From: a virus
Taxonomy: Duplodnaviria; Heunggongvirae; Uroviricota; Caudoviricetes
DNA: 22,290 bases
Direction: 5' to 3' (one strand)
Virus record (IMG/VR): IMGVR_UViG_2675903562_000009
Shown: piece by piece, positions 4,107 to 22,290 of the stretch
Numbering within the stretch: the stretch's first letter is position 1
How the letters are laid out: each line of letters starts with the position of its first letter
Made by a program: the position numbers and the translations under genes
Notes under the pieces: generated by a model
What the model was told of the DNA's origin: nothing
Database searches by the model: none
What the model saw: the letters and a program-made list of their open reading frames with translations, nothing else

Positions 4107-4110
4107 TGAC

Positions 4111-4860: not shown

Positions 4861-4876
4861 ATAACAGGAGAGTTTT

Positions 4877-5092
4877 ATGTTCAAAGATGATGTTCTGCGC
4901 TATTTCAAAAAAAAGCGACTAGTAGCTGAGGCTCTTGGAATTTCACATGTGGCTGTTGTGCGGTGGAAAGCAGTTATTCCCAAACTTCGCGCAATGGAAC
5001 TGGATGAAATTACTAACGGTGAATTGAAATACAACCCAGAACTTTACAAGAAGCAGGATAGCACCTCGAACGAAGGAAAGAATGATTCATGA
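4877..5092 (+). CDS. cro: Cro-type repressor (P22 Cro-like)
   Basis: 71-aa ORF with GGAGAG SD; MFKDDVLRYFKKKRLVAEALGISHVAVVRWKAVIP resembles P22 Cro as remembered; divergent from cI across the operator region. Confidence 0.8.
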   Translation: MFKDDVLRYFKKKRLVAEALGISHVAVVRWKAVIPKLRAMELDEITNGELKYNPELYKKQDSTSNEGKNDS

Positions 5093-5514: not shown

Positions 5515-5537
5515 AAGCACGGTGTTCGGAGTTTTTT

Positions 5538-6485: not shown

Positions 6486-6491
6486 CGTGTC

Positions 6492-7238: not shown

Positions 7239-7259
7239 TTTTGTCCGGAGGAAATTTTA

Positions 7260-8021
7260 ATGGAAACCGTTTTTGACGCACTGAAAGCAATGGGAAAAGC
7301 CACATCCATAGAACTTGCTGCGCGACTTGATATCAGTCGTGAAGAAGTGCTGAACGAACTATGGGAACTGAAAAAGGCTGGTTTCGTTGATAAAAGCGCG
7401 TACACCTGGCGTGTGGCTGATAACAACGTTCAGCAGGAACAGCCAGCGCAGGCAGAACTGCCGGAAGAAACCTCCACGGCGACAGTAGCGAAAATCTCAG
7501 AGTGCGATTTAACCGCGACGATTGAACAACACGGACCACAAACGGCTGATGAGCTGGCTACATTGTTTGGTACCACATCACGCAAAGTGGCTTCAACGCT
7601 GGCAATGGCAATCAGCAAAGGACGCCTGATTCGTGCAAATCAGGACGGTAAATTTCGTTACTGCATGCCGGGCGATAATTTACCAGCAGAGCCGAAAGCA
7701 GCATCGGTAGCGGAAACTGATGGTAAAGCCTTTCCTCAGCCTGCATGTGTTGCGTTACCAGTACAGGAGGCTGCAACACAGGAAGATATTAAAACAGAAA
7801 CTGTGGCGGACATTGTGCAGTCGCTGCCATCGTTTACTGAAACGCGAGCGGATGACCTGGTTTTACCATCGCTGCATATGGCAAACCGCGAACTGCGTCG
7901 GGCGAAAAGTCATGCCCAGAAGTGGGAACGAGTCTGCGCCGCGCTGCGGGAGCTGAACAAGCACCGGGATATTGTTCGACATATTTTCGATTCCTCCAGT
8001 CATATTGTGTCGGAAAAGTGA
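7260..8021 (+). CDS. Hypothetical phage protein with two winged-helix-like segments
   Basis: 253-aa ORF with GGAGG SD; two HTH-like stretches ([28 protein letters not shown] and [30 protein letters not shown]). Confidence 0.65.
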
Positions 8022-8037
8022 TTCCTGGGGAGGGCTT

Positions 8038-8460
8038 ATGGCAAAAGTTTTTACACAAGAAGAGCGAGAAAAAATTAAAGGGCAGGTTGTTGAACTCGTA
8101 CGCCAGAGTGGGCGTGAGACGTTACGGCAACTGGAAGTCAAGACAGGTGCGACAAGATATCTGATGAGCGTTCTCGCAAGAGAGCTGGTTGCCAGCGGCG
8201 ATGTATACAACTCTGGTTACGGGTTATTCCCGTCTGAACAGGCGCGTAAGGACTGGCAAAATGCCCGTAAAAAACTATCAAGGGCAAAGGTGAAGAAACC
8301 GGTTGTGGTTGATCCTGACCTTATCTGGTCATTACCCGACGGAGAAATACGTCGTTACGACAGGCGTCTGAACATAATCTGTCGCGAGTGCCGGAAGAGT
8401 GAGGTTATGCAGCGAGTGCTGGCGTTTTATCAGGGTAATTTTCAGGAGGTGATGGCGTGA
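8038..8460 (+). CDS. Hypothetical phage protein (140 aa)
   Basis: Track ORF 7972..8460 trimmed to ATG 8038, which follows a GGGGAGGG SD. Confidence 0.6.
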   Translation: MAKVFTQEEREKIKGQVVELVRQSGRETLRQLEVKTGATRYLMSVLARELVASGDVYNSGYGLFPSEQARKDWQNARKKLSRAKVKKPVVVDPDLIWSLPDGEIRRYDRRLNIICRECRKSEVMQRVLAFYQGNFQEVMA

Positions 8461-8870
8461 GGGTGAGGGTTTATATCGCTGGTCCGATGACCGGGTATAA
8501 AAATTTCAACCGTGAGGCGTTCCACAAGGCGGAAGAGGAACTGAAACGGGAAGGGCATACAGTCTTGAACCCGGCAGTACTTCCGGACGGGCTGACACAG
8601 CCACACTACATGGATATCTGCATGGCGATGATTCGTTGCGTGGATGCGATTTACATGCTGCAAGGCTGGCAGCGGTCAGCAGGCGCTAAAGCGGAACTGG
8701 CTCTGGCGGAGAAGCTAGGGCATGTGGTTGTTTTTCAGAGGGGGCGATATGCCGATTCTCTGGTTTCAGGAGGTGTGGGAAAAAGAAATGTGGGAAGGTC
8801 TTGTGATTGTGGCCGAAACAGTTCTTTTATTATGGTCTGTGATTGCGTGTATTTTTATGATTTATTGTGA
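8457..8870 (+). CDS. DUF4406-like protein (nucleoside 2-deoxyribosyltransferase-like fold)
   Basis: GTG start overlapping the upstream stop (GTGA) with AGGAGG 6 nt upstream; N-terminal YIAGPMTG...NF pattern typical of this family; the Cys-rich C-terminal tail is atypical. Confidence 0.55.
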   Translation: MRVRVYIAGPMTGYKNFNREAFHKAEEELKREGHTVLNPAVLPDGLTQPHYMDICMAMIRCVDAIYMLQGWQRSAGAKAELALAEKLGHVVVFQRGRYADSLVSGGVGKRNVGRSCDCGRNSSFIMVCDCVYFYDLL

Positions 8871-8902
8871 ATGATGTGAATCTCGCGGTGGCCACTGAAT
8901 TG

Positions 8903-8943
8903 CAACCATTACCCCCTGTGATGTAATTGTGGGGTAATGGTTG
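8903..8943. repeat. Perfect 13-bp inverted repeat (CAACCATTACCCC / GGGGTAATGGTTG) with 15-nt spacer
   Basis: Read directly from the sequence, in the 5' leader of the 8978 gene; no T-tract follows, so it is not a classical terminator. Confidence 0.6.
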
Positions 8944-8977
8944 CGCAGGCATAGCGACAGGACTGGATGAGAAAAAT

Positions 8978-9400
8978 ATGACGAAATTTACCAGAGAGCA
9001 ATTGATTGCTCATGCTAATGAAAGTGTGAAATCCATGAAATTTGCTGCGCGACAGACCGTGTTTAAGACTTCAAGAGTTGCCATTGAAATGGATCTTGCG
9101 CTTGCCCGTATTGCGCTTGCCTCACTTGAAGCAATGCCAGTTGCATGGTCCTGTGCTCACAATATGGTTTTGTTCAATGCTGAATCTGTTGCGGCATACG
9201 CAAAACACTCAGCCATTGCGCCAAAACCCCTGTACGCTGCGCAACCGGCATCACTTTCACATGAGGAAGAGTTGACAATGCTGGTTAAACAATTGGTAAG
9301 TCAGTTGAAAAAAGCGAAACCAGATTGCAAATTACCGGATATGGCGATGGGGTATCTGGAGCGGAATGGGCTGATAAGCGCGGAGGATGTTTTACGATGA
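8978..9400 (+). CDS. Hypothetical phage protein (140 aa)
   Basis: Track ORF 8927..9400 trimmed to the ATG at 8978 (MTKFTREQLIAH...). Confidence 0.55.
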   Translation: MTKFTREQLIAHANESVKSMKFAARQTVFKTSRVAIEMDLALARIALASLEAMPVAWSCAHNMVLFNAESVAAYAKHSAIAPKPLYAAQPASLSHEEELTMLVKQLVSQLKKAKPDCKLPDMAMGYLERNGLISAEDVLR

Positions 9401-9480
9401 CCTGGCCGGAGGCATTCACAACGACAGGAATTGCAATGGCGGCAGCACTTGTTGTGTATTCGATTTGCCGCTGGGGATAA
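9397..9480 (+). CDS. Candidate 27-aa single-pass membrane peptide
   Basis: ATG overlaps the upstream stop (ATGA) and has a GGAGGA SD 9 nt upstream; encodes MTWPEAFTTTGIAMAAALVVYSICRWG. Below the ORF-track size cut-off. Confidence 0.35.
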   Translation: MTWPEAFTTTGIAMAAALVVYSICRWG

Positions 9481-9691
9481 AAACGGTTTGCAGTGAAAGG
9501 GGAGTTAAGTAGAATTGCTGCGGGTGCTTGAGGCTATCTGCCTCAGGCATGAACACCAAAAGGCAGATAGAGAAAAGCCCCAGTTAACATTACGCGTCCT
9601 GCAAGACGCTTAACATTAATCTGAGGCTCAATCTATGTCTCACAAATGTAGGTTAGCCTCTTACGTGCCGAAAGGCAAGGAGAAGCAGGCT

Positions 9692-9847
9692 ATGAAGCAG
9701 CAAAAGGCGATGTTAATCGCCCTTATCGTCATCTGTTTAACCGTCATAGTGACGGCACTGGTAACGAGGAAAGACCTCTGCGAGGTACGAATCCGAACCG
9801 GCCAGACGGAGGTCGCTGTCTTCACAGCTTACGAACCTGAGGAGTAA
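9692..9847 (+). CDS. hok: Hok/Gef-family type I toxin (51 aa) with in-frame upstream extension from 9635
   Basis: MKQQKAMLIALIVICLTVIVTALVTRKDLCEVRIRTGQTEVAVFTAYEPEE is near-identical in pattern to Gef/HokC as remembered; AAGGAGAAG SD; structured leader upstream and a 3' hairpin (GCGAGGG...CCCTCGC at 9856-9877) typical of hok mRNAs. Confidence 0.8.
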   Translation: MKQQKAMLIALIVICLTVIVTALVTRKDLCEVRIRTGQTEVAVFTAYEPEE

Positions 9848-9915
9848 GAGACCAGGCGAGGGAGAAATCCCTCGCCACCTCTGATGTGTCAGGCATCCTC
9901 AACGCACCCGCACTT

Positions 9916-9937
9916 AACCCGCTTCGGCGGGTTTTTC
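9916..9937 (+). terminator. Rho-independent terminator after hok
   Basis: AACCCGC-TTCG-GCGGGTT followed by TTTTT. Confidence 0.7.
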
Positions 9938-10062
9938 GTCGCATAATGAGGTTGTAATTTTAGCTACCATTAGACTATCCTAAGGATCTCAAACAGATCT
10001 ATTTTGCATCAAATTTGGTGCATGGCTTTGCCAATAATCGGAAAACAAAAGGACTCATTAGT

Positions 10063-10242
10063 ATGAGCTGCCCACTCAAAAAACACACGCGGTTGAGTAT
10101 TCCGCCTCGCGATAAAAGCGTTGTGGCAGTCCCTCGCCCAGCGATTGATGAAAACTGCGCACATCGTGAACAAGTGAAAAATGCTTTTGATTTCGGTTTT
10201 TCTCGTTATGAGAAAGCCATGGAAGAACTTTCAAAAGTGTAA
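10063..10242 (+). CDS. Small ORF (59 aa) upstream of the Doc-like toxin; candidate antitoxin
   Basis: AAGGA SD 9 nt upstream of ATG 10063; ends 18 nt before the Doc-like start; sequence not recognisably Phd/YefM-like. Confidence 0.45.
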   Translation: MSCPLKKHTRLSIPPRDKSVVAVPRPAIDENCAHREQVKNAFDFGFSRYEKAMEELSKV

Positions 10243-10260
10243 TGATGGGTATTGTGCTCT

Positions 10261-10746
10261 ATGGCTGAGATTGTTGAAGGAGTGCATTACCTTACGGTTG
10301 ATGATCTTGTTGAAATCAATCGTTCCCTAATTGAATTACAGACGCCAGATGAGCCCGTTGGTGTTCTGAGTCCAGATAACTTAAGTTCTTCTCAGGCCCG
10401 TCCCAGCATGGTTCGATGGTATGAACAGACTAATGACATGTTTGTACTGGCATCGGTATTGATTGAAAGTCTGATTCAGAATCATCCGTTTGCTAATGCG
10501 AACAAACGAACAGCTATGATGGCTGGTTACGTCTTCTTGTTGTTGAATGGCTATGAGTTAACAGCACCAGGCGATGAAATCGTGGAAATGGCAGAGGGAC
10601 TGGCCTGCAAAACCTATACTCGAGAAGATCTCGAGAACTGGTTGTGTTATTGGTCTCGCGCGTATGACAGCCGGGAATTATGTAAAACAGGCGCAACTAT
10701 TGTTTTGTATGAAACTATCAAGCTTAAAATAGAACAGCAAAACTAA
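10261..10746 (+). CDS. Doc/Fic-family toxin-like protein
   Basis: Contains HPFANANKRTA, matching the Doc-type variant of the Fic motif (HxFx[D/N][A/G]NKR); size is appropriate for a Fic/Doc family member. The track start is a TTG at 10252; the ATG at 10261 is preferred. Confidence 0.7.
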   Translation: MAEIVEGVHYLTVDDLVEINRSLIELQTPDEPVGVLSPDNLSSSQARPSMVRWYEQTNDMFVLASVLIESLIQNHPFANANKRTAMMAGYVFLLLNGYELTAPGDEIVEMAEGLACKTYTREDLENWLCYWSRAYDSRELCKTGATIVLYETIKLKIEQQN

Positions 10747-10760
10747 AGGTGCTTCCAATG

Positions 10761-10789
10761 AAAACCCGCTTCGGCGGGTTTTGTTTTTT
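10761..10789 (+). terminator. Rho-independent terminator after the Doc-like gene (possibly bidirectional)
   Basis: AAAACCCGC-TTCG-GCGGGTTTT followed by GTTTTTT; same stem-loop sequence as the terminator at 9916. Confidence 0.7.
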
Positions 10790-10861
10790 CCTGGCATTCT
10801 GGTTTACAATTCGCACGCCAGCCTGAACAACTGGCACCTGCTGCGCCAGCAGAGACAACCG

Positions 10862-11134
10862 ATGGCGCACAAAAACAAATTTCACAATTCTGATACCGAC
10901 CTTGCCATCCGGCACGGGCGGCGTTCACACGCATTTAAAACCGACTGGTACCAACACCCACCATGTACTGAAGAACAGGCCGAATGGCTAATTCATAACT
11001 ACCGCAGGCGCGGATACGAGGTTAAGAAAGCCCTCAGCCTCGATTATCGTCACTGGATAATCTATGTCAGGCTCCCTTATTCCGAACGCCCACCGCGTCC
11101 GTCCCGCACATTCCAGCAACGCATCTGGAGGTAA
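10862..11134 (+). CDS. Hypothetical protein (90 aa)
   Basis: Track ORF 10781..11134 trimmed to ATG 10862, because the longer form would begin inside the terminator. Weak SD; its stop immediately precedes the SD and GTG start of the next gene. Confidence 0.4.
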   Translation: MAHKNKFHNSDTDLAIRHGRRSHAFKTDWYQHPPCTEEQAEWLIHNYRRRGYEVKKALSLDYRHWIIYVRLPYSERPPRPSRTFQQRIWR

Positions 11135-11135
11135 C

Positions 11136-12185
11136 GTGCGGGTATTACTTCGACCTGTTCCGGTACCGGAACTTGGGCTGGTGGTGCTAAAACCGGGCCG
11201 TGAATCCATGCAGGTATTTCATAACCCTCGAGTTCTGGTGGAGCCGGAACCGAAAAGCATGCATGGTCTGCCGTCCGGAGTCGTTCCTGCTGTTCGCCAG
11301 CCGCTGGCGGAGGATAAATCATTACTGCCATTTTTCAGCGATGAGCGGGTGATTCGTGCTGCTGGTGGTGCTGGTGCATTGTCTGACTGGCTGTTACGCC
11401 ACGTTAAATCCTGCCAGTGGCCTCATGGTGACTATCATCACAGTGAAACCGTTATTCACCGTTATGGTACTGGCGCAATGGTGTTGTGCTGGTACTGCGA
11501 CAACCAGCTGCGTGACCAGACTTCTGAATCACTCGGGCAGCTTGCTCACCAAAACCTGTCAGCATGGATGATTGATGTCATCCGCCACGCAATGAATGGC
11601 ACGCAGGAGCGGGAATTATCGCTGGCTGAATTATCCTGGTGGGCGGTCTGCAATCAGGTGGCGGACGCGCTACCAGAGGCAGCATTACGTCGTTCTCTGG
11701 GGTTACGTGCGGAAAAAATTCGCTCAGTATACCGCGAGAGCGACATCGTGCCGGGAGAGCAGACCGCCACCAGCATGCTGAAGCAGCGCACAAAAAATCT
11801 TGCGCCGCTGCCTCACGCCCACCAGCAACAGAACCCACCACAGGAAAAGACGGTGGTCAGCATTGCCGTTGATCCTGAGTCTCCGGAATCTTTCATGAAA
11901 CGACCTAAACGTCGCCGCTGGGTTAACGAGAAATACACACGCTGGGTGAAGACACAGCCGTGTGCGTGTTGTGGTAAGCCAGCCGACGATCCCCATCACC
12001 TGATTGGTCATGGTCAGGGCGGAATGGGGACAAAATCTCACGATATTTTCACGCTACCGCTGTGTCGGGGGCATCACAACGAGCTTCATGCGGATCCGCT
12101 GGCGTTCGAAGAAAAGCATGGTTCTCAGGTTGATTTAATTTTTCGTTTTCTTGATCACGCCTTTGCAACTGGCGTGCTTGGGTAA
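11136..12185 (+). CDS. DUF968-family protein with HNH-like Cys/His-rich C-terminus
   Basis: GTG start 3 nt after a GGAGGT SD and directly after the upstream stop; C-terminus PCACCGKPADDPHHLIGHGQGG...LPLCRGHHNELH. Confidence 0.7.
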   Translation: MRVLLRPVPVPELGLVVLKPGRESMQVFHNPRVLVEPEPKSMHGLPSGVVPAVRQPLAEDKSLLPFFSDERVIRAAGGAGALSDWLLRHVKSCQWPHGDYHHSETVIHRYGTGAMVLCWYCDNQLRDQTSESLGQLAHQNLSAWMIDVIRHAMNGTQERELSLAELSWWAVCNQVADALPEAALRRSLGLRAEKIRSVYRESDIVPGEQTATSMLKQRTKNLAPLPHAHQQQNPPQEKTVVSIAVDPESPESFMKRPKRRRWVNEKYTRWVKTQPCACCGKPADDPHHLIGHGQGGMGTKSHDIFTLPLCRGHHNELHADPLAFEEKHGSQVDLIFRFLDHAFATGVLG

Positions 12186-12197
12186 AAGAGGTGACTG

Positions 12198-12557
12198 ATG
12201 CTCATAGATTTGGTTTTACCTTACCCGCCGACGGTGAACACTTACTGGCGACGCCGTGGCAGCACATATTTTATCTCGGAGGAGGGAAAGCGTTATCGCC
12301 GGGCTGTGGCGCTTATTGTTCGCCAGCAGCGGCTGAAATTAAACCTGTCCGGAAGGCTGGCGATAAAGGTGATTGCAGAGCCACCGGATAAACGTCGTCG
12401 TGACCTGGACAATATCCTGAAAGCACCACTGGATGCACTGACACATGCGGGGTTGCTTATCGACGACGAGCAGTTTGATGAAATTAATATTGTGCGCGGT
12501 CAGCTTGTTCCTGGTGGGCGGTTGGGGATAAAAATCACAGAACTGGAGTGCGCATGA
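12198..12557 (+). CDS. rusA: RusA-family Holliday junction resolvase
   Basis: 119 aa; LPYPPTVNTYWRRRG N-terminus and the RRRDLDN...LIDDEQ acidic motifs characteristic of RusA. Confidence 0.85.
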   Translation: MLIDLVLPYPPTVNTYWRRRGSTYFISEEGKRYRRAVALIVRQQRLKLNLSGRLAIKVIAEPPDKRRRDLDNILKAPLDALTHAGLLIDDEQFDEINIVRGQLVPGGRLGIKITELECA

Positions 12558-13243
12558 ATAACCAGTATTTACAGTTTGTTCGTGAGCAACTCATGATTGC
12601 CACCGCCGATTTGAGTGGATCAACAAAAGGGCAGCTTGAAGCCTGGCAGGAGAATGCCATGTTCGATACAGGGCGTTACAGGCGAAAAAAAATCCGGTAC
12701 CGCGATGAAGTGACTGGAAAAATGATAACGCGGGATAATCCACCAATCCCGGGAAAGCAATCGCTGGCGAAAGGTTCATCAATTGCCCTGGTCAGTCCGG
12801 TTGAGTTTTCGACATCATCATGGCGACGCGCCGTTCTGTCTCTTGAAGAGCATCAGAAGGCGTGGGTGCTGTGGGTATACAGTGAAAATCCGAGTTGGGA
12901 TTATCAGGTGGTCATTGCGAAATGGGCGTGGGATAAGTTTCAGGTGCATTTTGGCACCAGAAAAATTACAGGGAAAACGCTTGAGCGTCTGAAGAAATTA
13001 ATCTGGCTGGCGGCGCAGGATGTCAGGGGGAGGATTACTGGGCGTGACGTCTACCAGCGACAGGAACTTGCCAGACTGTGTGGAGTTAAGCCTGACAACT
13101 GGAGCCATAATTATGCGAACTACTGGCGTGAGATGTGCGACATTTTTAAGAAACTCGATACAGAATCCTTGATTTGCACCGTGAAAATGAGATCGCAACA
13201 AAAAGCGACCTTTTCACGACGAGATATTGCAAAAGTCAATTAA
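12554..13243 (+). CDS. Candidate late-gene antiterminator (Q-like), assigned by position
   Basis: 229-aa ORF (ATG overlapping the rusA stop, GGAG SD); last gene of the nin-like region, immediately followed by a promoter-like element and a strong terminator, as for lambda Q/pR'/tR' and Qin ydfU-quuQ. No motif-level confirmation. Confidence 0.5.
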   Translation: MNNQYLQFVREQLMIATADLSGSTKGQLEAWQENAMFDTGRYRRKKIRYRDEVTGKMITRDNPPIPGKQSLAKGSSIALVSPVEFSTSSWRRAVLSLEEHQKAWVLWVYSENPSWDYQVVIAKWAWDKFQVHFGTRKITGKTLERLKKLIWLAAQDVRGRITGRDVYQRQELARLCGVKPDNWSHNYANYWREMCDIFKKLDTESLICTVKMRSQQKATFSRRDIAKVN

Positions 13244-13255
13244 ATCGCATACATT
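13227..13255 (+). promoter_or_regulatory. Candidate late promoter (pR'-like)
   Basis: TTGCAA (13227-13232), 17 bp, TACATT (13250-13255); would give a roughly 50-nt transcript ending at the terminator at 13291-13315. Confidence 0.3.
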
Positions 13256-13290
13256 TTATGTAAATGTGATATTTTGCCGTATAGTGTGTA

Positions 13291-13315
13291 AACCCGCTTA
13301 AATGCGGGTTTTTTG
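13291..13315 (+). terminator. Rho-independent terminator (tR'-like)
   Basis: AACCCGC-TTAAAT-GCGGGTT followed by TTTTTT. Confidence 0.75.
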
Positions 13316-13387
13316 CTTAACTCTGTGGACCTTTTTATCTGTAGTTGTAAGATATGGATATTCTTACAATTTAGGTCGGTGAGCTTA

Positions 13388-14152
13388 ATGGAAGAACAGC
13401 ACGGTAATTACTTTATAAAACGAATTCAGTTGATTGGAAGGGGTGCATTTGGCTTTGTTGAACACGTTAAGGTTTACAACCTCAACAAGGGTGAATGTGG
13501 GGATTATGCTAGAAAGGTTTTAGCCCCCGAAAAACCAGAGCTTTTGGCGCAAATAGAGCAGTTTAGAAGGCGTTTTAAAAGGGAGGTCGTGTATCAATCA
13601 CATTGCGTACATAGCAATATTGTTCCTATTTATTTGTGCGATTTGTTTGCCGAGAATCCATGGTTCATTATGGATAAAGCAGAATGTGATCTTGAGCACG
13701 AAATAACGAACAACCTTCTTACAACAGATCAAAAAATTTCAATAGTGAAAATGGTATTAGATGGTGTAGCTCACATCCATGCGAAAGGCTATTTACACAG
13801 AGATATAAAACCATTTAATGTCTTGCGATTTAGCGACGGAACATACAAGGTGTCTGATTTTGGTCTGGTAAAAGATACAAATCCCGAAGGGGATACCACT
13901 AAATTGACCGAGATCGGTACCCGTATGGGAAGTACAAGATATATGGCTCCCGAGATTTTATATAATGCCGAGTATTCAGTTAAGACTGATGTTTATGCGG
14001 TGGGGCGGTTAATTGAGGACTTAAATTTAGATGATAAAAAAATAAAGCCTATCATAGCGAAGTGTACCAGGATGGATAAAGATGATAGATATCAGACAAT
14101 AGATGATGTGGCGTTTGATTTTGTGCATTCTTTTTTAAGGAGTGAGTCATGA
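13388..14152 (+). CDS. Hanks-type (eukaryotic-like) Ser/Thr protein kinase
   Basis: 254 aa from ATG 13388. Gly-rich loop GRGAFGFV, lysine in YARKVL, catalytic loop HRDIKPFNVL, DFG (VSDFGLV) and APE (YMAPEIL) motifs all present; region is visibly AT-rich relative to neighbours (not computed). Confidence 0.85.
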   Translation: MEEQHGNYFIKRIQLIGRGAFGFVEHVKVYNLNKGECGDYARKVLAPEKPELLAQIEQFRRRFKREVVYQSHCVHSNIVPIYLCDLFAENPWFIMDKAECDLEHEITNNLLTTDQKISIVKMVLDGVAHIHAKGYLHRDIKPFNVLRFSDGTYKVSDFGLVKDTNPEGDTTKLTEIGTRMGSTRYMAPEILYNAEYSVKTDVYAVGRLIEDLNLDDKKIKPIIAKCTRMDKDDRYQTIDDVAFDFVHSFLRSES

Positions 14153-14892
14153 TTCAGCTGATAGCGACTTCATCATTCTCGTATCCAAAAGAACCAGGTA
14201 GGGTCAACGAAGATTCATTGCTTCCTCCCAAAATTGTAGGGGATGGCATCTTATTTGCCGTAGCTGATGGTGTAGGTTCATACACTGGTGCCAGTCAGGC
14301 TTCATCAATGGCAATTGCTGAACTTTCAGCATTGACAAGCTTATCTTTTGACACAGTTCCGGATGTATTTGATGAAGTTAAGCGAAAGGTTATGTCGTTA
14401 GCTGATGTTAATGATGAGTTCGATAAAGCTGCTACTACACTTACGTTTTGTTATGTTTGTGATAGCGGAATTATTATTGGTCATATTGGTGATTGTCGTT
14501 TGTATTGCATTGGAGAGAAGAAAGCATACCAATTGACGAAGGACGATACCAGGCATCAGATGCTAATTGATCAGAATATTTTTAAACCCAGAGATTTGAA
14601 GGATAAACCGGGCAAAAATATCTTAACGACGGCTATAGCCTCAAATGTTGATATGGAATACGACTGTGATTTTATCACATGGAAAGATTTACCTAGTATT
14701 AACGGGGTATATCATCTGTGTATCATGTCTGATGGGGTTCATAACGTTTGGGAAAAACGCCCCAGATTTACATCAAATACGATGAGTAATAGTCAGAAGT
14801 TTTCTAATGGCATTTTGCGTCGTATAGAGAGAGCCGGACCTGATGATGACTTTTCTTTAGTAAGTATAATGGTGCGTGTGACGTCAGATTAG
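14149..14892 (+). CDS. PP2C-family Ser/Thr protein phosphatase
   Basis: 247 aa; start overlaps the kinase stop (ATGA) with AAGGAG SD; metal-binding motifs VNEDS, AVADGVGS, GDCR and MSDGV typical of bacterial PP2C phosphatases. Confidence 0.85.
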   Translation: MIQLIATSSFSYPKEPGRVNEDSLLPPKIVGDGILFAVADGVGSYTGASQASSMAIAELSALTSLSFDTVPDVFDEVKRKVMSLADVNDEFDKAATTLTFCYVCDSGIIIGHIGDCRLYCIGEKKAYQLTKDDTRHQMLIDQNIFKPRDLKDKPGKNILTTAIASNVDMEYDCDFITWKDLPSINGVYHLCIMSDGVHNVWEKRPRFTSNTMSNSQKFSNGILRRIERAGPDDDFSLVSIMVRVTSD

Positions 14893-14967
14893 TTGTATAA
14901 ACTCAGTAGGGAATGCTAATTTCACATACAACATAGTTAAAGAAAACTTAATTTTAATGTAAAAAGG

Positions 14968-14996
14968 CTGCCCTCAGGCGGTCTTTTTATGCTCGA
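14968..14996 (+). terminator. Probable intrinsic terminator after the kinase-phosphatase operon
   Basis: Imperfect hairpin GGCTGCC-CTCA-GGCGGTC (one G-U pair, one mismatch) followed by TTTTTAT. Confidence 0.4.
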
Positions 14997-15110
14997 AAAT
15001 TGATGCAGTACGTTAAACGCGCTGGTGGTTGCGAATACCGGTCTTTCAGCTTGCTGGCTTTTTAGACAAGAGTTATTGGTATGTCACGTTAACCAGAAAA
15101 GGGAAAAAGA

Positions 15111-15309
15111 CATGCTAAAACAGCAGGATATGACCGAAACCGCCAGAGTGGTGTTTAATGAATTAAGCGTCACCGAACCGGCGACCGTCGGGGAAATTGC
15201 GCAGAATACTTACCTTTCACGCGAACGCTGCCAGTTAATCCTGACCCAGCTTGTTATGGCGGGTCTGGCAGATTATCAGTTCGGTTGTTACAGACGCCTT
15301 CTGCAGTGA
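15111..15309 (+). CDS. Small putative winged-helix DNA-binding protein (66 aa)
   Basis: Track ORF 15025..15309 trimmed to ATG 15111 (MLKQQDMTETARVVFNELSVTEPATVGEIAQNTYLSRERCQLILTQLVMAGLADY); lies upstream of the methyltransferase. Confidence 0.55.
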
Positions 15310-15459
15310 AGGCTTTTTAATTTGTGGTAATGGGCGGCTGGTGGGTGTTAGCGGCACCTGCCAGCCATCTGCTCATGCGTTGGGGTCACAAGCAAACCTC
15401 AGGCCCATCTGCTTTGCGCAAAAGCAGTATGAGCCTATCAGAGAAGTGCTTATTGATCT

Positions 15460-16509
15460 ATGACTAATACTGTAAAAATATCCAGTTGTGAGTTAATCAA
15501 CGCTGATTGCCTGAAATTTATCCAGACCTTACCGGAAAACTCTGTCGATCTGATAGTCACAGACCCGCCATACTTTAAAGTGAAGCCCGAGGGCTGGGAT
15601 AACCAGTGGGAGGGCGACGATGATTACCTGAAATGGCTGGACCAGTGTCTGGCGCAGTTCTGGCGGGTACTGAAGCCTGCCGGAAGTCTTTACCTGTTCT
15701 GTGGTCATCGCCTGGCATCTGACACCGAAATCATGATGCGTGAGCGCTTTAATGTGCTGAACCACATTATCTGGGCGAAGCCGTCCGGACGCTGGAACGG
15801 GTGCAATAAGGAAAGTCTGCGGGCGTATTTTCCGGCAACAGAGCGCATTCTGTTTGCAGAACATTATCAGGGACCGTATCGCCCGAAAGATGATGGCTAT
15901 GTGGCACAGGGGCGCGAGCTAAAACAGCACGTCATGGCCCCGCTGATTTCTTACTTTCGTGATGCGCGTAAATCACTGGGAATAACGTCAAAACAGATAG
16001 CGGAAGCCACCGGAAAGAAAAACATGGCTTCGCACTGGTTTGGTACCAGTCAGTGGCAGTTACCGAACGAGGGTGATTACAACAAATTGCAGGCGTTGTT
16101 TGCGCGTGTTGCGGCAGAAAAACATCAGCGCGGGGAACTGGAAAAGCCACACCACCAGCTGGTCAGCACATACAGTGAGCTGAACCGGCAGTACACGGAA
16201 CTGCTGAGTGAATATAAAAATTTGCGGCGGTATTTCGGTGTGACGGCGCAGGTTCCGTACACCGATGTCTGGACGCATAAACCGGTGCAGTACTATCCAG
16301 GAAAACATCCGTGCGAAAAACCGGCAGAAATGCTGCAGCAGATAATCAACGCGAGCAGTCGTCCGGGAGACCTGGTTGCAGATTTTTTTATGGGTTCAGG
16401 TTCAACGGTAAAAGCGGCGATGGCACTGGGGCGTTGTGCGATTGGTGTTGAGCTGGAGACAGGACGTTTTGAACAGACAGTCAGGGAAGTTCAGGATTTA
16501 ATCGTTTGA
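15460..16509 (+). CDS. Orphan DNA methyltransferase (N6-adenine/N4-cytosine class, beta-type motif order)
   Basis: 349 aa; motif IV DPPY (VTDPPYF) near the N-terminus and motif I FFMGSGST near the C-terminus; overall architecture like YhdJ-type enzymes. No restriction endonuclease gene is adjacent. Confidence 0.9.
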   Translation: MTNTVKISSCELINADCLKFIQTLPENSVDLIVTDPPYFKVKPEGWDNQWEGDDDYLKWLDQCLAQFWRVLKPAGSLYLFCGHRLASDTEIMMRERFNVLNHIIWAKPSGRWNGCNKESLRAYFPATERILFAEHYQGPYRPKDDGYVAQGRELKQHVMAPLISYFRDARKSLGITSKQIAEATGKKNMASHWFGTSQWQLPNEGDYNKLQALFARVAAEKHQRGELEKPHHQLVSTYSELNRQYTELLSEYKNLRRYFGVTAQVPYTDVWTHKPVQYYPGKHPCEKPAEMLQQIINASSRPGDLVADFFMGSGSTVKAAMALGRCAIGVELETGRFEQTVREVQDLIV

Positions 16510-16558
16510 AACGGATGAGATTGCAGAATTAATTACGCACCATTATTATTCTGCTCCC

Positions 16559-16634
16559 GGCCCTTTAGCTCAGTGGTGAGAGCGAGCGACTCATAATCGC
16601 CAGGTCGCTGGTTCAAATCCAGCAAGGGCCACCA
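16559..16634 (+). tRNA. tRNA with CAU anticodon; closely resembles E. coli tRNA-Ile2 (ileX-type, lysidine-dependent), Met not excluded
   Basis: 76 nt with perfect 7-bp acceptor stem (GGCCCTT/AAGGGCC), D-arm GCTCAGTGGTGAGAGC, anticodon loop CTCATAA, T-loop TTCAAAT and encoded CCA. Confidence 0.85.
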
Positions 16635-16635
16635 A

Positions 16636-16712
16636 CCGTCACCAGTTCATCAGGAAAGAGCGTCAACCCTTTAAGTTGAGTGTGCGAGGTTCGAGTCCTC
16701 GGTGGCGGGCCA
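16636..16712 (+). tRNA. Non-canonical tRNA-like gene (anticodon loop CCTTTAA, nominal UUU) or tRNA pseudogene
   Basis: Acceptor stem CCGTCAC/GTGGCGG (one G-U), T-arm CGAGG-TTCGAGT-CCTCG and encoded CCA, but C at positions 8 and 33 and an atypical D-arm. Begins 1 nt after the preceding tRNA. Confidence 0.45.
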
Positions 16713-16714
16713 GT

Positions 16715-16790
<76 letters not shown>

Positions 16791-16793
16791 TAT

Positions 16794-16868
<75 letters not shown>

Positions 16869-17142
16869 GCATTTGAAATAAGCCTTATTGTATTGCAGCA
16901 CTGGCGTATTTTTTATTACGTGGGAGCAGGTTGTTTTAAGAGACATTCTGTTCTCTGGCTATGATTTGAGGCCAGGTTAGCCTCAGTGCTGATTTTTTTT
17001 ACGACAGCAGAATGGTGCATTATCGGTGGAGATTTTGTATTTCCTGGCAGGGTCGGTAATGCATCATTCTGATGTTGTAAGCATCGCTCAGAATAACGTT
17101 GAGATTAATCGCGTACTAAGCAAAACTTGGAAATACATCCTT

Positions 17143-17168
17143 AACCGCCGCACCAGGCGGTTTTTTTT
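17143..17168 (+). terminator. Rho-independent terminator
   Basis: AACCGCC-GCACCA-GGCGGTT followed by eight T. Confidence 0.75.
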
Positions 17169-17183
17169 ATTCATTTTTTTCAT

Positions 17184-17206
17184 GGCTCGCTACGGCGGGC
17201 CTTTTT
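17184..17206 (+). terminator. Rho-independent terminator (second of a stack)
   Basis: GGCTCGC-TACG-GCGGGCC followed by TTTTT. Confidence 0.55.
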
Positions 17207-17292
17207 CATATCCTCGCCACACCCGGCGCATATCACATCAAATAACGCCGCGCAAAAGGCATCTGCGGGCGCCTTTGACGGGGTGTTTTTAC

Positions 17293-17314
17293 GGGCCGCT
17301 GGTGGCCCTTTTTT
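17293..17314 (+). terminator. Rho-independent terminator (third of a stack), 20 nt upstream of the next start codon
   Basis: GGGCC-GCTGGT-GGCCC followed by TTTTTT. Confidence 0.65.
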
Positions 17315-17333
17315 ATTTACAGGAGAAAAACGT

Positions 17334-18746
17334 ATGTCTGAACCCTTATCTGGTTCCGGCACGGCTGCGGCGCTCGGTGGGGCGACGGTATTCGGGCTGT
17401 TTACCGGAACGGATTTCGGGATTGTGTTTGGTGCGTTCGCCGGGGCGTTATTTGTGGCAACGATGCCGCAGGCGCTTTCAATCTGGCGTGTGGTGGCGCA
17501 TTTTTTGGTGTCGTTTATCGTCGGCGTGCTGGGGGCGCGCGTGCTGTCAGCCTGGATTGCATCAAAAACAGGGTATGACGGTACATCGGCAGATGCGCTG
17601 TGTGCGGTGCTGGTATCGGTGGTGTCGGTGAAGATTGCGGATATCAGGCAGGTTGAAACCACAGCACGCTATCTTGGCACGGCGCTGTACTGGATAGCCG
17701 CCAGTATCAATATCAGGCCGGGCCATAATTATTATTTTTACGTTCGCAGTGTGAACACCGTTGGCAAATCGGCATTCGTGGAGGCTGTTGGTCAGCCGAG
17801 TGATGACGCATCCGGCTATCTGGATTTTTTCAAAGGCGAGATAGGGAAAACCCATCTGGCTCAGGAGCTGTGGACGCAGATTGATAACGGTCAGCTTGCG
17901 CCTGACCTGGCTGAAATCAGGACATCCATTACGGATGTCAGCAATGAAATCACACAGACCGTCAATAAGAAACTGGAAGACCAGAGTGCAGCGATCCAGC
18001 AGATACAGAAGGTTCAGGTTGATACAAATAATAACCTGAACAGCATGTGGGCTGTGAAGCTGCAGCAGATGCAGGACGGACGCCTTTATATCGCGGGTAT
18101 CGGTGCCGGTATTGAGAATACGCCAGCAGGCATGCAGAGTCAGGTGCTGCTGGCGGCAGACAGGATTGCGATGATTAATCCTGCGAATGGCAACACAAAG
18201 CCGATGTTTGTTGGTCAGGGCGATCAGATATTCATGAACGAAGTGTTCCTGAAATATCTGACGGCTCCCACCATTACCAGCGGCGGTAATCCTCCGGCAT
18301 TTTCCCTGACACCGGACGGAAAGCTGACCGCTAAAAATGCGGATATCAGTGGCAGTGTGAATGCGAACTCCGGGACGCTCAACAACGTCACGATTAACGA
18401 GAACTGCCGGGTTCTGGGAAAACTGTCCGCGAACCAGATTGAAGGCGATCTCGTTAAAACAGTGGGCAAAGCTTTCCCCCGGGACTCCCGTGCACCGGAG
18501 CGGTGGCCATCAGGGACCATTACCGTCAGGGTTTATGACGATCAGCCGTTTGACCGGCAAATTGTTATTCCGGCGGTGGCATTCAGTGGCGCTAAGCATG
18601 AGAGAGAGCATACTGATATTTACTCCTCATGCCGTCTGATAGTGCGGAAAAACGGTGCTGAAATTTATAACCGTACCGCGCTGGATAATACGCTGATTTA
18701 CAGTGGCGTTCCCGCCGTCACATGCCGGGACCATCACCGTGTATGA
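17334..18746 (+). CDS. Chimeric ORF: about 100-aa hydrophobic N-terminus joined to a C-terminal fragment resembling tail-tip host-specificity protein J; likely a deletion remnant
   Basis: ATG 17334 with AGGAGA SD. First ~100 aa contain three hydrophobic stretches. From about [42 protein letters not shown] onward the sequence parallels the C-terminal third of lambda J as remembered ([42 protein letters not shown]). Confidence 0.6.
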
Positions 18747-21480
18747 AGATTCCCGACCCGGTACGCTGAATGATTTTCTCGGTGCCATGACGGAGGATGA
18801 TGCCCGTCCGGAGGCACTGCGCCGTTTTGAACTGATGGTGGAAGAGGTGGCGCGTAACGCGTCCGCAGTGGCACAGAACACGGCAGCCGCGAAGAAGTCA
18901 GCCAGTGATGCCAGCACATCAGCCCGTGAGGCGGCAACCCATGCGACTGATGCTGCAGGCTCAGCACGCGCAGCCAGCACGTCAGCCGGACAGGCCGCGT
19001 CGTCGGCTCAGTCAGCGTCTTCCAGCGCAGGAACGGCATCGACAAAGGCCAGTGAAGCAGCGAAAAGTGCTGCTGCTGCAGAGTCATCAAAAAGCGCGGC
19101 AGCTACCAGCGCCAGTGCCGCGAAAACGTCAGAAACGAATGCCGCAGCATCACAAAAATCGGCAGCCACTTCTGCATCCACAGCGACCACGAAGGCGTCA
19201 GAAGCTGCCACCTCGGCACGGGGGGCGGCGGCCTCAAAAGAGGCAGCGAAATCATCAGAAACGAATGCATCATCAAGTGCCAGTAGTGCAGCTTCCTCGG
19301 CAACGGCGGCAGGAAATTCCGCGAAGGCGGCAAAGACGTCTGAGACAAACGCTAAGTCTTCTGAAACGGCAGCAGCACAGAGTGCCTCAGCTGCGGCAGG
19401 TTCAAAAACAGCGGCTGCATCGTCGGCCAGTGCCGCGTCAACAAGTGCCGGGCAGGCCTCAGCCAGTGCCACCGCCGCCGGAAAATCGGCAGAAAGCGCC
19501 GCATCATCCGCTTCAACAGCCACAACGAAGGCTGGCGAAGCCACTAAGCAAGCCACTGCAGCAGCGAGGTCTGCTTCTGCAGCAAAAACCTCTGAAACAA
19601 ATGCAAAGACTTCAGCAGACAATGCTGCTTCCTCTAAGGCGGCAGCCGCATCGTCCGCTGGTTCAGCGGCGTCATCGGCATCATCTGCGTCTGCTTCAAA
19701 AGATGAGGCGACCAGACAAGCGTCAGCAGCGAAAGGTAGTGCCACGACAGCAACAACGAAAGCATCAGAGGCGGCAGGCAGTGCGACGGCTGCATCTCAG
19801 AGCAAAGTTGCTGCTGAATCCGCGGCAACGCGTGCCGAAACAGCAGCAAAACGGGCAGAGGATATTGCTGATGCCGTATCTCTGGAAGATGCGAGCACGA
19901 CGAAAAAAGGTGTGGTTCAGCTCAGCAGTGCGACCAACAGCACTTCCGAGTCACTGGCGGCAACACCAAAGGCAGTAAAGGCAGCATATGACCTTGCTAA
20001 CGCAAAATATACCGCTCAGGATGCAACGACGGCACGAAAAGGGATAGTTCAGCTCAGTAGCGCCACTAACAGCCCGTCTGAAACGCTGGCTGCGACACCA
20101 AAAGCGGTTAAGGCGGTAATGGATGAAACGAACAAGAAAGCGCCTTTAAACAGTCCTGCGCTGACCGGAACGCCAACAACGCCAACTGCGCCAAAAGGGA
20201 CTAATAATACTCAGATCGCAAGCACGGCTTATGTGATGGCCGCGATTGCCGCACTTGTAGACTCGTCGCCTGACGCACTGAATACGCTGAACGAGCTGGC
20301 GGCGGCGCTGGGAAACGACCCGAATTTTGCGACCACCATGACTAACGCGCTTGCGGGTAAGCAACCGAAAGATGCCACCCTGACGGCGCTGGCCGGGCTT
20401 GCTACTGCGGCAGACAGGTTTCCGTATTTTACGGGGAATGATGTCGCCAGCCTGGCAACCCTGACAAAAGTCGGGCGGGATATTCTTGCGAAATCGACCG
20501 TTGCCGCTGTTATCGAATACCTCGGTTTACAGGAAACGGTAAGTCAGGCTTCTGGCGCATTACAGAAAAACCAGAACGGCGCAGATATTCCAGGAAAAGA
20601 TACCTTCACCAAAAATATTGGTGCCTGCCGCGCATATAGCTCATGGCTGAATATTGGTGGCGATAGTCAGGTCTGGACAACCGCGCAATTTATTTCGTGG
20701 CTGGAGAGTCAGGGGGCATTTAACCATCCTTACTGGATGTGCAAAGGCTCATGGGCTTATGCAAATAATAAGGTCATTACAGATACAGGTTGCGGAAATA
20801 TTTGTCTTGCAGGTGCTGTGGTGGAAGTTATTGGCACTCGCGGCGCAATGACCATACGCGTTACTACGCCGAGCACGTCCAGCGGTGGCGGAATTACTAA
20901 CGCTCAATTCACTTATATTAATCATGGTGATGCTTACGCTCCTGGCTGGCGACGAGACTACAACACGAAAAACCAGCAGCCTGCATTTGCTTTAGGGCAA
21001 ACAGGACGCAGGGTCGCAAATGATAAAGCTGTTGGCTGGAACTGGAATAGCGGTGTTTATGATGCAGATATCAGTGGTGCATCGACATTAATCCTCCACT
21101 TCAATATGAATGCGGGGAGTTGCCCTGCTGTACAGTTCCGCGTGAATTACAGGAACGGCGGTATTTTTTATCGTTCAGCGCGTGATGGTTATGGCTTTGA
21201 AGCTAACTGGTCAGAGTTTTACACCACAACACGCAAACCCTCTGCGGGGGATGTTGGTGCATATACGCAGGCAGAATGTAACTCAAGGTTTATTACAGGT
21301 ATTCGCCTTGGCGGTCTGTCATCTGTTCAGACATGGAAAGGCCCCGGCTGGTCTGACAGGTCAGGTTATGTCGTTACGGGTTCAGTTAACGGAAACCGTG
21401 ATGAATTAATTGATACAACTCAGGCAAGGCCAATTCAGTATTGCATTAATGGGACGTGGTATAACGCGGGGAGTATTTAA
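18703..21480 (+). CDS. stf: Side tail fibre protein (Stf/StfR-like), lacking the usual N-terminal about 55 aa
   Basis: 925-aa ORF. Begins at a GTG with no SD, exactly at the conserved [15 protein letters not shown] motif; long Ala/Ser-rich repeat region; duplicated KKG(V/I)[21 protein letters not shown] module; C-terminal domain with YRNGG(I/L)FYRS(A/S)RDGYGFE. Opposite-strand and alternate-frame ORFs here are artefacts. Confidence 0.85.
18880..19900 (+). repeat. Coding low-complexity tandem repeats (Ala/Ser/Thr-rich fibre shaft)
   Basis: Recurring DNA units such as GCGAAAACGTCAGAAACGAATGC / GCAAAGACGTCTGAGACAAACGC encoding AKTSETNA-type motifs. Confidence 0.7.
20511..20536. other. gix/pix/cix-like crossover site for a Gin/Pin-family DNA invertase, inside stf
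   Basis: TTATCGAATACCTCGGTTTACAGGAA differs at about 2 positions from the Mu gix sequence as remembered (TTATCCAAAACCTCGGTTTACAGGAA); it lies in the codons for [10 protein letters not shown], the conserved constant/variable boundary of invertible tail-fibre genes. Confidence 0.7.
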
Positions 21481-21482
21481 CG

Positions 21483-22016
21483 ATGATGCACTTAAAAAAC
21501 ATTACTGCTGGCAACCCTAAAACAAAAGAGCAATACCAGCTAACAAAGCAATTTAACATCAAATGGCTTTATTCAGATGATGGAAAAAACTGGTATGAGG
21601 AACAAAAGAATTTCCAGCCAGACACTTTGAAAATGGTCTATGACCATAACGGCGTTATTATTTGTATTGAAAAGGATGTTTCAGCAATTAATCCAGAGGG
21701 TGCAAGCGTCGTTGAATTACCTGATATTACAGCAAATCGCCGGGCTGATATTTCGGGGAAATGGATGTTCAAAGATGGCGTAGTGATAAAGCGAACTTAT
21801 ACCGAGGAAGAGCAGAGGCAACAAGCGGAAAATGAAAAGCAAAGCCTGTTGCAACTTGTCAGGGATAAAACCCAGCTATGGGACTCACAGCTACGGCTGG
21901 GCATCATTTCCGACGAGAATAAACAAAAATTAACCGAGTGGATGCTCTATGCGCAGAAAGTCGAATCTACAGACACCTCCAGCCTGCCAGTAACATTTCC
22001 AGAACAACCAGCATGA
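21483..22016 (+). CDS. tfa: Tail fibre assembly protein (Tfa family)
   Basis: 177 aa immediately after stf (GGGGAG SD); C-terminal pattern EEQRQQAE...L.EW..Y...V...DTSS.P..FPEQP typical of Tfa chaperones. Confidence 0.8.
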   Translation: MMHLKNITAGNPKTKEQYQLTKQFNIKWLYSDDGKNWYEEQKNFQPDTLKMVYDHNGVIICIEKDVSAINPEGASVVELPDITANRRADISGKWMFKDGVVIKRTYTEEEQRQQAENEKQSLLQLVRDKTQLWDSQLRLGIISDENKQKLTEWMLYAQKVESTDTSSLPVTFPEQPA

Positions 22017-22021
22017 AACAA

Positions 22022-22046
22022 GGCCCGATAGCGGGCCTTAATTTTT
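22022..22046. terminator. Hairpin between convergent tfa genes (probable bidirectional terminator)
   Basis: GGCCCG-ATAG-CGGGCC followed by TTAATTTTTATT on the plus strand and by a short T-containing tract on the minus strand. Confidence 0.5.
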
Positions 22047-22290
22047 ATTCAGGCTTTTGTGGCCATTCAGGATTTGCCGTATCCACACGGCTGACCAGAA
22101 CACTGTAGCGTCCCCATGCTTCCAGTCGTGTGCGTTCCTCGTCTGTTGCCATATTCAGCCTGACAGCGCGTTCCAGCGGCCGAATAACGCTTTCTGCTTC
22201 GGAAAGTAACGCGGCCTTTTGTGATTCGGCCTGTTGTTGCTGTTCGTCAGCCGTATAAATCCGTTTAACGACTGCGTCGTCCTTAAACAT
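22045..22290 (-). CDS. Inverted second tfa-like gene, 5' part beyond window end (alternate tail-fibre cassette)
   Basis: Minus-strand ORF whose product ([21 protein letters not shown]...[26 protein letters not shown]) parallels the C-terminal half of the plus-strand Tfa; the ATG at the window edge corresponds to an internal Met of the plus-strand Tfa, so the gene probably extends past 22290. Confidence 0.7.

Follow-up and report, generated by a model that had tools for sequence, protein, structure and literature searches.

Does the overlap between a J-like ORF and a truncated side tail fibre gene in a defective coliphage genome represent a natural gene arrangement, maintained within a phage lineage, or a scar left by a rearrangement? 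The locus lies in the 22,290-nucleotide stretch of DNA analyzed here (IMG/VR record IMGVR_UViG_2675903562_000009; hereafter, the window), where the J-like ORF (17283..18746) shares 44 nt (18703-18746) with the downstream stf' ORF (18703..21480; the prime denotes a truncated gene). A sequence-only reading of the window had proposed that the J-like ORF terminates 44 nt inside stf, that no lom-like gene intervenes, and that the joint is a recombination or deletion scar. The overlap is as described, with the stop of the J-like ORF at 18746, and there is indeed no lom-like ORF between J' and stf'.

The window consists of a lambdoid prophage that is inserted at ompW, between ompW and yciE-trpA, in an ETEC-like Escherichia coli. 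The early region of this prophage is intact and encompasses the exonuclease, dicB, the repressor, cro, ydaT, replication genes, hokD, and doc, along with a DUF968 gene, rusA, Q, a Ser/Thr kinase, a PP2C phosphatase, a DNA methyltransferase, and a tRNA cluster. Downstream of the tRNAs (16559-16868), the late region is reduced to a holin'::J'::stf'-tfa array followed by an inverted tfa' stub. The only ORF between the tRNAs and stf' is the holin'::J' fusion; no ORFs for an endolysin, terminase, portal, capsid, or tail tube were found in this interval, as befits a defective prophage. Sister prophages are eroded in the same part of the genome, each in its own way. E1739 matches window positions 1-17244 at 99.87% identity, after which come 246 nt left over from lom and a complete stf. 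In E1316, the match to window positions 1-17619 is followed directly by the counterpart of 22029-22290, yielding a holin'::tfa' joint. The relatives located at the potB/potC site show comparable erosion while keeping a complete stf: E24377A carries a terS::lom'-stfR arrangement, and E8 contains many fragments, including L'::J'.

The breakpoint between J and stf (junction 2; 18709..18710) can be placed to within two nucleotides. Homology to J of phage 2G7b and of contig L011 ends at 18710 with the letters ..TACAGTGGCGTT, and homology to stf begins at 18709 with TTCCCGCCGTCACATGCC... The undeleted J flank reads ..AGTGGCGTT/ATTGAT.. and the undeleted stf flank reads ..GGACGGATT/CCCGCC.. (the slash marks the break), so that the dinucleotide TT at 18709-18710 is all that the two sides have in common. 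An overlap of 2 nt is expected in 16% of random joints, and hence we do not claim any particular mechanism for this junction. Longer microhomologies suggested by overlapping BLAST alignments, 4 nt at the holin::J joint (junction 1) and 6 nt in E1316, were considered as a mechanistic signal and dismissed: on inspection, the strict overlaps shrink to 1-2 nt, and the rest includes mismatches.

The reading frames are disrupted at the joint, with the stf frame offset by +1 relative to the J frame. As a result, the holin'::J' ORF continues past the breakpoint into stf codons 67-78 read in the -1 register (18711..18746, plus strand), adding an out-of-frame tail of 11 residues before the TGA at 18744-18746. 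Such a 12-codon run to a stop codon in the wrong frame is the chance expectation and is unremarkable. In the opposite direction, the stf frame is closed by a TGA at 18694..18696 (plus strand), as the sequence-only reading had pointed out, and this triplet belongs to the J-derived sequence. The first possible start of stf' is then the GTG at 18703, which, again in agreement with that reading, opens the ORF at the FPPSHAGT motif. Both this GTG and the next codon, GCG, consist of J-derived bases that are read in another frame within J; the start codon is thus fortuitous, an accident of the joint. A scan for promoters and terminators around the joint identified no promoter-like site near 18700. 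Several other ORFs cross or adjoin the joint, at 18627-18980 (minus strand), 18734-19090 (minus strand), and 18905-19978 (plus strand); they lie in the GC-rich and Ala-rich shaft of stf, and we regard them as compositional artefacts.

Both flanks of junction 2 have intact counterparts in sequenced prophages, and the identity is complete. Window positions 17633-18710 align with the intact 3' end of J in L011 with 0 mismatches over 1078 nt; beyond this match, L011 encodes the remaining 48 residues of J, the J stop codon, a lom gene, and an stf gene. A protein search with J' led to the same contig, which encodes a J fragment (P0002) that is 100% identical to J' and has the normal C-terminal end. 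On the other side, window positions 18709-21908 align with the full-length stf-tfa module of E. coli E8 with 0 mismatches over 3200 nt, and the E8 stf, which encodes a 989-aa protein, is preceded by the J 3' end and by lom, which is intact there. The flanks are therefore collinear with undeleted relatives, and the genes that belong between them are missing. Projected on the J-lom-stf layout of E8, the segment absent from the window is 1076 bp long (L005 29830-30905) and contains the last 48 codons of J with the stop codon, the J-lom spacer, lom, the lom-stf spacer, and stf codons 1-66. The lost lom-stf spacer carried the native SD sequence and ATG of stf.

Neither of the two matching genomes provides both flanks: the stf of L011 is a different allele, with ~91% identity at the 5' end, the J of E8 is 97.2% identical to that of the window, and both prophages reside at the potB/potC site rather than at ompW. 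Because the two 100%-identical undeleted flanks never occur together in one sequenced genome, we reconstruct the ancestor as a mosaic of the L011 and E8 types. The FDAARGOS_1058 prophage, which lacks lom and has J directly followed by stf, such that a deletion of only 405 bp would be implied, was considered as an alternative ancestor; its flanks are only 85-90% identical to those of the window, and it was dropped given the perfect matches to the lom-bearing E8 and L011. Judging from these matches, the ancestor likely possessed lom, which then would have been lost in the same event.

What remains of J is an internal piece. The upstream ORF is a fusion in which 100 holin codons, beginning with the ATG at 17334, are joined at 17633 to the middle of J. 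The holin' part (17334..17633, plus strand) covers positions 1-100 of the 121 in Phage_holin_8 (PF16931) and has its own ATG with an SD sequence of -7.4 kcal/mol; its homology to the 'putative holin' of E24377A stops at ~17633-17636. The joint with J (junction 1; 17633..17636) shows a strict microhomology of 1 nt (G 17633), with GATT against GGTT as an imperfect match of 3 in 4 positions. The deletion at this point eliminated the remaining lysis genes together with the entire set of head and tail genes and two-thirds of J, counted from its 5' end. Accordingly, J' (17634..18710, plus strand; 359 codons) lacks the hub domains of J: its homology starts at 17633, at lambda residue 753, with the holin upstream, and in alignment with the gpJ chain 8iyk_J it corresponds to lambda J residues 753-1083. 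The Pfam domains detected in J' are Ig_J_second (positions 37-104), Phage_Tail_Tip, and Ig_GpJ_C, the receptor-binding domain, of which positions 1-84 of 135 are present.

The break in J follows lambda residue 1083, beyond which lambda J has 49 more residues. The sequence-only reading was right about the truncation of J; its estimate of about 50 missing residues becomes 48 (49 in lambda numbering), and these 48 residues are present in L011, E8, and FDAARGOS_1058. In lambda, the C-terminus of gpJ is the Ig-like receptor-binding domain, in which loops L1-L4 contact LamB (PMC11101478). The loss of approximately the last third of this domain should prevent J' from folding and from binding a receptor. 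The receptor of this J allele is, in any case, probably not LamB because its receptor-binding part differs from that of lambda J (29% identity over the last ~100 residues). The start of holin' is located downstream of Q and of three terminator-like hairpins found in the promoter and terminator scan; with a good SD sequence in this position, the holin'::J' chimera could be produced from late transcription.

The damage to stf is reciprocal to that in J. The stf' ORF (18703..21480, plus strand) encodes 925 aa, and the true stf sequence starts at 18709/18711, with codon F67, so that the first 66 codons are gone. Among all 7 Stf proteins compared (lambda, Rac StfR, and five close relatives), exactly 66 residues precede the FPPSHAGT motif; the sequence-only reading had put this number at about 55 for lambda Stf and Rac StfR. 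The comparison with lambda and Rac that it had suggested thus shows a 66-residue Stf N-terminus retained in both and lacking in the window. It had also held that intact phages with the same J/stf overlap would point to a normal arrangement in this lineage; the opposite was found, namely, that J of the relatives ends normally and their stf starts 66 codons earlier. In Pfam terms, Stf' matches only positions 67-134 of the 134 in the prophage tail fibre N-terminal domain (PF08400), and Stf of E8 matches positions 1-134, that is, the collar domain is incomplete in Stf'.

The structure of the fibre base gives this loss a likely consequence. The N-terminus of Stf forms a six-stranded antiparallel beta sheet with a helix, and 12 copies of it make up a collar around the gpV/gpM junction, which, rather than J, is the site where Stf attaches to the tail (PMC12617516). 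The structure 9e7m in the PDB resolves Stf residues 1-94. By residue counts, the missing 66 residues would amount to about two-thirds of the collar domain and probably include much of its sheet. As residues 1-66 constitute most of the collar anchor, any Stf' that is made is predicted to be unable to mount on a tail; furthermore, the window element encodes neither a tail tube protein (gpV) nor gpM for Stf' to bind. The distal part of the fibre is preserved, with two stretches of Phage_fiber_2 (PF03406) repeats in Stf' and tfa next to it. The tfa gene (tail fibre assembly chaperone; 21483..22016, plus strand) is intact, covering Caudo_TAP positions 2-131 of 131, and has an SD sequence of -7.6 kcal/mol. 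It is followed by a tfa' fragment on the minus strand (22045..22290) that runs to the end of the window and is what is left of the alternative arm in an invertible segment for the fibre tip; in the annotation of the sister genomes E1739 and E1316, ompW' and yciE come after this fragment. The intact survivors, the fibre shaft, the tip, and the tfa module, could serve, at most, as recombination stock for superinfecting lambdoid phages.

Translation signals of stf' were assessed by the energy of the duplex with the 3' end of 16S rRNA. The values for the candidate starts are -3.1 kcal/mol for GTG 18703, -2.3 for ATG 18787, and +0.4 for ATG 18835, against a background of -2.4 +/- 2.5 kcal/mol at arbitrary positions of the window. 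Thus, as the sequence-only reading had stated for GTG 18703, there is no SD sequence, and none of the candidates qualifies as a start with a ribosome-binding site of its own. Native stf starts in the three closest relatives range from -6 to -11 kcal/mol, with FDAARGOS_1058 at only -3.3, and most of the other accepted gene starts in the window fall between -5 and -11 kcal/mol. The sole conceivable aid to Stf' initiation would be re-initiation by ribosomes that terminate at the TGA at 18744-18746; relative to this stop, GTG 18703 is 41 nt upstream and ATG 18787 is 41 nt downstream. With no SD sequence at any candidate start, Stf' translation should be poor, yielding little protein; the sequence-only reading had likewise suggested that translation may be weak or rely on coupling.

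The same junction recurs in numerous assemblies. The exact 925-aa Stf' is encoded on at least 16-19 contigs, where it is annotated as 'tail fiber protein', and the exact 470-aa holin'::J' product, annotated as 'DUF1983 domain-containing protein', on 33 contigs; as the latter includes the out-of-frame tail, it reports both junctions. Independent NCBI assemblies, Logan assemblies of several SRA runs, and one IMG/VR contig all contain the junction, and the contigs bearing it reach 237 kb and 4.87 Mb. The single IMG/VR match (L014) is 99.8% identical, has the window-type arrangement, and represents the same defective prophage. Searches elsewhere returned no instance of junction 2: none in 5,426 complete E. 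coli genomes, the best matches there being two pieces that span ~1005 bp, and none among 50,697 phage records, all of which cover less than 80% of the 601-nt probe. A 34-mer spanning the junction was not found in the GTDB species representatives or in the JGI metagenomes. A search for a full-length J with the aberrant tail retrieved only J proteins with normal ends or partial ones among the best 120 protein matches, in a set where clustering at 90% hides such a variant.

Two of the contigs, L008 and L009, allow the two junctions to be ordered. They match window positions 17633-22290 at 100%, with junction 2 included, but upstream of 17633, where the window has the holin, their J continues as an open frame for another ~760 nt. 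The L008-type J runs at least 613 codons upstream of junction 2, and the contigs end inside J. Their right ends have the ompW-type joint, as in L007 and E1739, and not the E8 sequence. Given that L008 and L009 carry junction 2 without junction 1, junction 2 came first and junction 1 later; junction 2 arose in an ompW prophage with a longer J, before the holin::J deletion at 17633. The holin'::tfa' joint of E1316 is compatible with a still later deletion.

Taken together, these observations make it very likely that junction 2 is a scar that formed when a lambdoid prophage at ompW lost ~1.1 kb of its late region in a single illegitimate deletion. The interpretation of the joint as a recombination or deletion scar in the sequence-only reading is thereby supported, by the 100%-identical undeleted flanks, the two Pfam domains cut at the joint, and the absence of an SD sequence. 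We infer a single intramolecular event that would have acted on the ancestral order J - terminator - lom - stf - tfa and placed stf codon 67, in the +1 register, directly behind J codon ~1083 (lambda numbering), with neither a recombinase site nor homology beyond the 2-nt overlap at the deletion ends; as to the enzymology, either replication slippage or end joining may have been at work. What resulted is a J without its last 48 residues and with an 11-residue nonsense tail, the loss of lom, and an stf without the codons for residues 1-66; the later holin::J deletion, removing the lysis, head, and tail genes, then produced the arrangement seen in the window. The truncated J and stf are almost certainly dead remnants, and the joint between them serves no function in itself. 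Since neither flank has accumulated any substitution, the openness of the ORFs reflects the recency of the event and not selection.

Alternatively, the joint could have formed illegitimately between two resident lambdoid prophages, which supplied an L011-like J and, for example from the prophage at the potB site, an E8-like stf-tfa module, with the resulting block subsequently installed at ompW. The best parent for J (L011) and the best parent for stf (E8) are indeed different genomes, both with the prophage at potB/potC, and the stf genes are clearly mosaic, so that even the E1739 sister at ompW has an stf just 97.7% identical to that of the window. We nevertheless consider this origin unlikely. 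In all relatives, J precedes stf in the same orientation at a distance of ~1.1 kb; given this collinearity, a deletion needs one event, whereas a joint between two prophages needs extra homologous exchanges; furthermore, the mosaic is accounted for just as well by homologous recombination among J and stf alleles prior to the deletion. Both routes end in an identical scar without function. Even less plausible, to the point of being negligible, is an assembly or sequencing artefact, in the form of a contig chimeric for repeated prophage sequences. J and stf are multi-copy in E. coli, occurring in a median of 3 places per genome, and short-read assemblies break there, but the identical junction is present in independent NCBI, Logan, and IMG/VR assemblies, on contigs up to 237 kb and 4.87 Mb long.

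The possibility that the arrangement is normal and functional, with a natural J/stf overlap and Stf made from the FPPSHAGT motif by translational coupling, has to be weighed because both ORFs are open, annotated as proteins, and recur on dozens of contigs. These contigs, however, are identical in sequence and thus belong to one recent lineage; the arrangement is absent from the phage records and complete genomes searched, and 100%-identical undeleted parents exist. With two domains cut midway, a J tail that is out-of-frame stf, no SD sequence, and no morphogenesis genes in the element, we find this reading highly improbable. We assign equally little credence to a low-level +1 slip at the CCC-G proline site (18711-18714) that would fuse J' to Stf' (..LIYSGV-PPSHAGT..). 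The stf frame is exactly the J frame +1, the site is located within the overlap, and CCC-G is a sequence type prone to +1 shifts through slippage of tRNA-Pro; the predicted fusion across the joint (..LIYSGVPPSHAGT..) is seamless, with no internal stop, and in the L008-type precursor, at least 613 codons of J would precede it. Yet, the site comes without a stimulator: nothing resembling an SD sequence precedes it, the A-site codon (GCC, a common one) is neither rare nor a stop, and CCC-G is simply part of the native stf sequence TTC CCG CCG. Moreover, J' of the window lacks the N-terminal hub domains and has no tail on which to be mounted, and the arrangement is too recent to show selection. 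Thus, no conserved relatives, SD sequence, or supported shift site indicate a programmed overlap, coupling, or frameshift. That the L008/L009-type precursor made a J(delta-48)::Stf(delta-66) chimeric central fibre by such a slip, or that stf'-tfa is a selected recombination reservoir, likewise appears scarcely credible. If true, the +1 fusion would swap the receptor-binding domain of J for the shaft and tip of the side fibre and so amount to a natural host-range switch in one step.

If junction 2 is a deletion scar, as we favour, its importance beyond annotation hygiene is small: the 925-aa and 470-aa database proteins derive from fragments of pseudogenes, which their entries should state. As a whole, the locus offers a clean and datable record of how a single ompW prophage suffered successive deletions, first J::stf, then holin::J, and then holin::tfa', with a separate lom' branch, and illustrates prophage erosion that proceeds from the late region while the early toxin, regulator, and kinase cargo is kept. 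The 34-mer spanning the junction is a specific marker of the lineage.

The kind of event described here, prophage decay striking fibre genes, is known, and the particular joint is new. The Rac prophage of K-12 (ynaA, a tape-measure fragment; IS5-split lomR; stfR; tfaR) similarly has lost the lysis, head, and most tail genes and still has, at the right end, a tail-gene fragment, the lom position, and the stf-tfa module. In the window, lom is deleted and both J and stf are cut; Rac, by contrast, has a full-length stfR that includes the 66-residue N-terminus, and its lom was interrupted by IS5. In laboratory lambda (PaPa), as in the window, stf is inactivated by a simple mutation next to an intact tfa; a frameshift that splits stf into orf-401 and orf-314 prevents the synthesis of side fibres (PMC12617516). 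That lesion, however, is a 1-nt frameshift in the middle of the gene that leaves the collar domain, J, and lom intact, whereas the window carries a 1.1-kb deletion. Against the structures of lambda gpJ (PDB 8xcj/8xck) and Ur-lambda Stf (9e7m), J' aligns with residues 753-1083 and Stf' from residue 67 onwards, leaving both the receptor-binding and the collar domains incomplete in the window. A further close parallel is provided by the ETEC sister prophages (E1739, E1316, E24377A, and E8), which share the gene order and near-identical early regions (99.9% identity over 17.2 kb in E1739) and have undergone illegitimate late-region deletions of their own. In E1739, E24377A, and E8, lom or what remains of it is followed by a complete stf, and E1316 has lost stf altogether, whereas the J::stf joint occurs in the window lineage only.

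The first junction, at which the holin gene (window 17334-17636) is joined in frame to the middle of the tail-tip gene J at 17633 with a strict overlap of 1 nt, yields a chimera of 470 amino acids that combines a membrane N-terminus with J fibre domains. The Phage_holin_8 part retains 100 of about 130 codons and is preceded by a good Shine-Dalgarno sequence. The same chimera is found on 33 contigs and carries the NCBI label 'DUF1983 domain-containing protein'. The second joint, between the J fragment and the 5'-truncated side tail fibre gene stf, coincides exactly with the sequence CCC-G (18711-18714), in which G follows a Pro codon. Judging by the reading frames, a +1 slip at this site would read through ..LIYSGVPPSHAGT.. 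and produce a J'-Stf' fusion without a stop codon; no stimulatory signal for such a slip was seen.

Rearrangements of the same region were traced in related prophages. Remnants of lom, the gene between J and stf in undeleted relatives, are 246 nt long in E1739 (L003, 20236-20260) and in E24377A (L006, 23765-23790) and start at the identical lom position in these different prophages. Both share the edge ATA|TGGCTTACAGCCGTG, compared with GGGTG|TGGCTTACAG in intact lom. The right breakpoint is common to the two; the left partners differ, being the position equivalent to window 17244 in E1739, at ompW, and terS in E24377A, at potB. In E1316, also an ompW prophage (L004, 20600-20640), window 17619 is joined to 22029. 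This additional loss of 17620-22028 removes the J fragment, the truncated stf and the fibre assembly gene tfa and creates a holin'::tfa' joint with an imperfect overlap, TA(T/G)CGG; outside the deletion, E1316 and the window share 99.96-100% identity.

The end of the window that includes the stf 3' end and tfa (20510-22290) matches positions 5300-7080 of L011, a contig with an intact J 3' end followed by lom and stf, at 95.7% in inverted orientation. Downstream of the full-length stf-tfa of E. coli E8, a fibre tip and tfa lie on the opposite strand, together with a recombinase fragment. Taken together, these observations indicate a Pin/Gin-type invertible fibre-tip segment. It is frozen in one orientation in the window, where a tfa' stub (22045-22290, minus strand) is the sole part of the other arm left.

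Grounded prophages typically keep toxin-type and host-acting genes as cargo. The early region is still present in the window and abounds in such genes (2261-2449, minus strand; 5089-5514; 9692-9847; 10261-10746). According to the annotation of E1739 and E1316, whose sequence is identical here, they are dicB, a YdaT-family toxin, hokD and a Doc (death-on-curing) toxin. The antiterminator gene Q (12554-13243) is directly followed, at a site used for cargo in Stx phages, by two overlapping genes (13388-14892), one for a eukaryotic-type Ser/Thr protein kinase and one for a PP2C phosphatase; both E24377A and the ompW prophages have conserved this pair. Immediately 5' of the holin start is a stack of three strong terminator-like hairpins with T-runs (17143-17170, 17184-17210, 17293-17318), which are candidate Q-dependent late terminators; 12 terminator-like sites were counted in this region versus 3.0 +/- 2.2 in shuffled sequence.

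Between the methyltransferase and holin genes, ARAGORN calls four tRNAs (16559-16868): one with a CAT anticodon, labelled tRNA-Ile in sister genomes, Lys-TTT (16636-16712), Lys-TTT (16715-16790) and Gly-TCC. RefSeq annotates only three for the identical region of E1739 and E1316, without the 16636-16712 gene. In the E24377A cluster, the middle gene is tRNA-Thr. Finally, the Ala/Ser-rich stf shaft contains alternative-frame or antisense ORFs of up to 357 amino acids (18905-19978, plus strand; 19008-19745 and 18627-19090, minus strand), most likely compositional artefacts of GC-rich repetitive coding sequence; the lambda record includes a similar antisense 'orf206b'.
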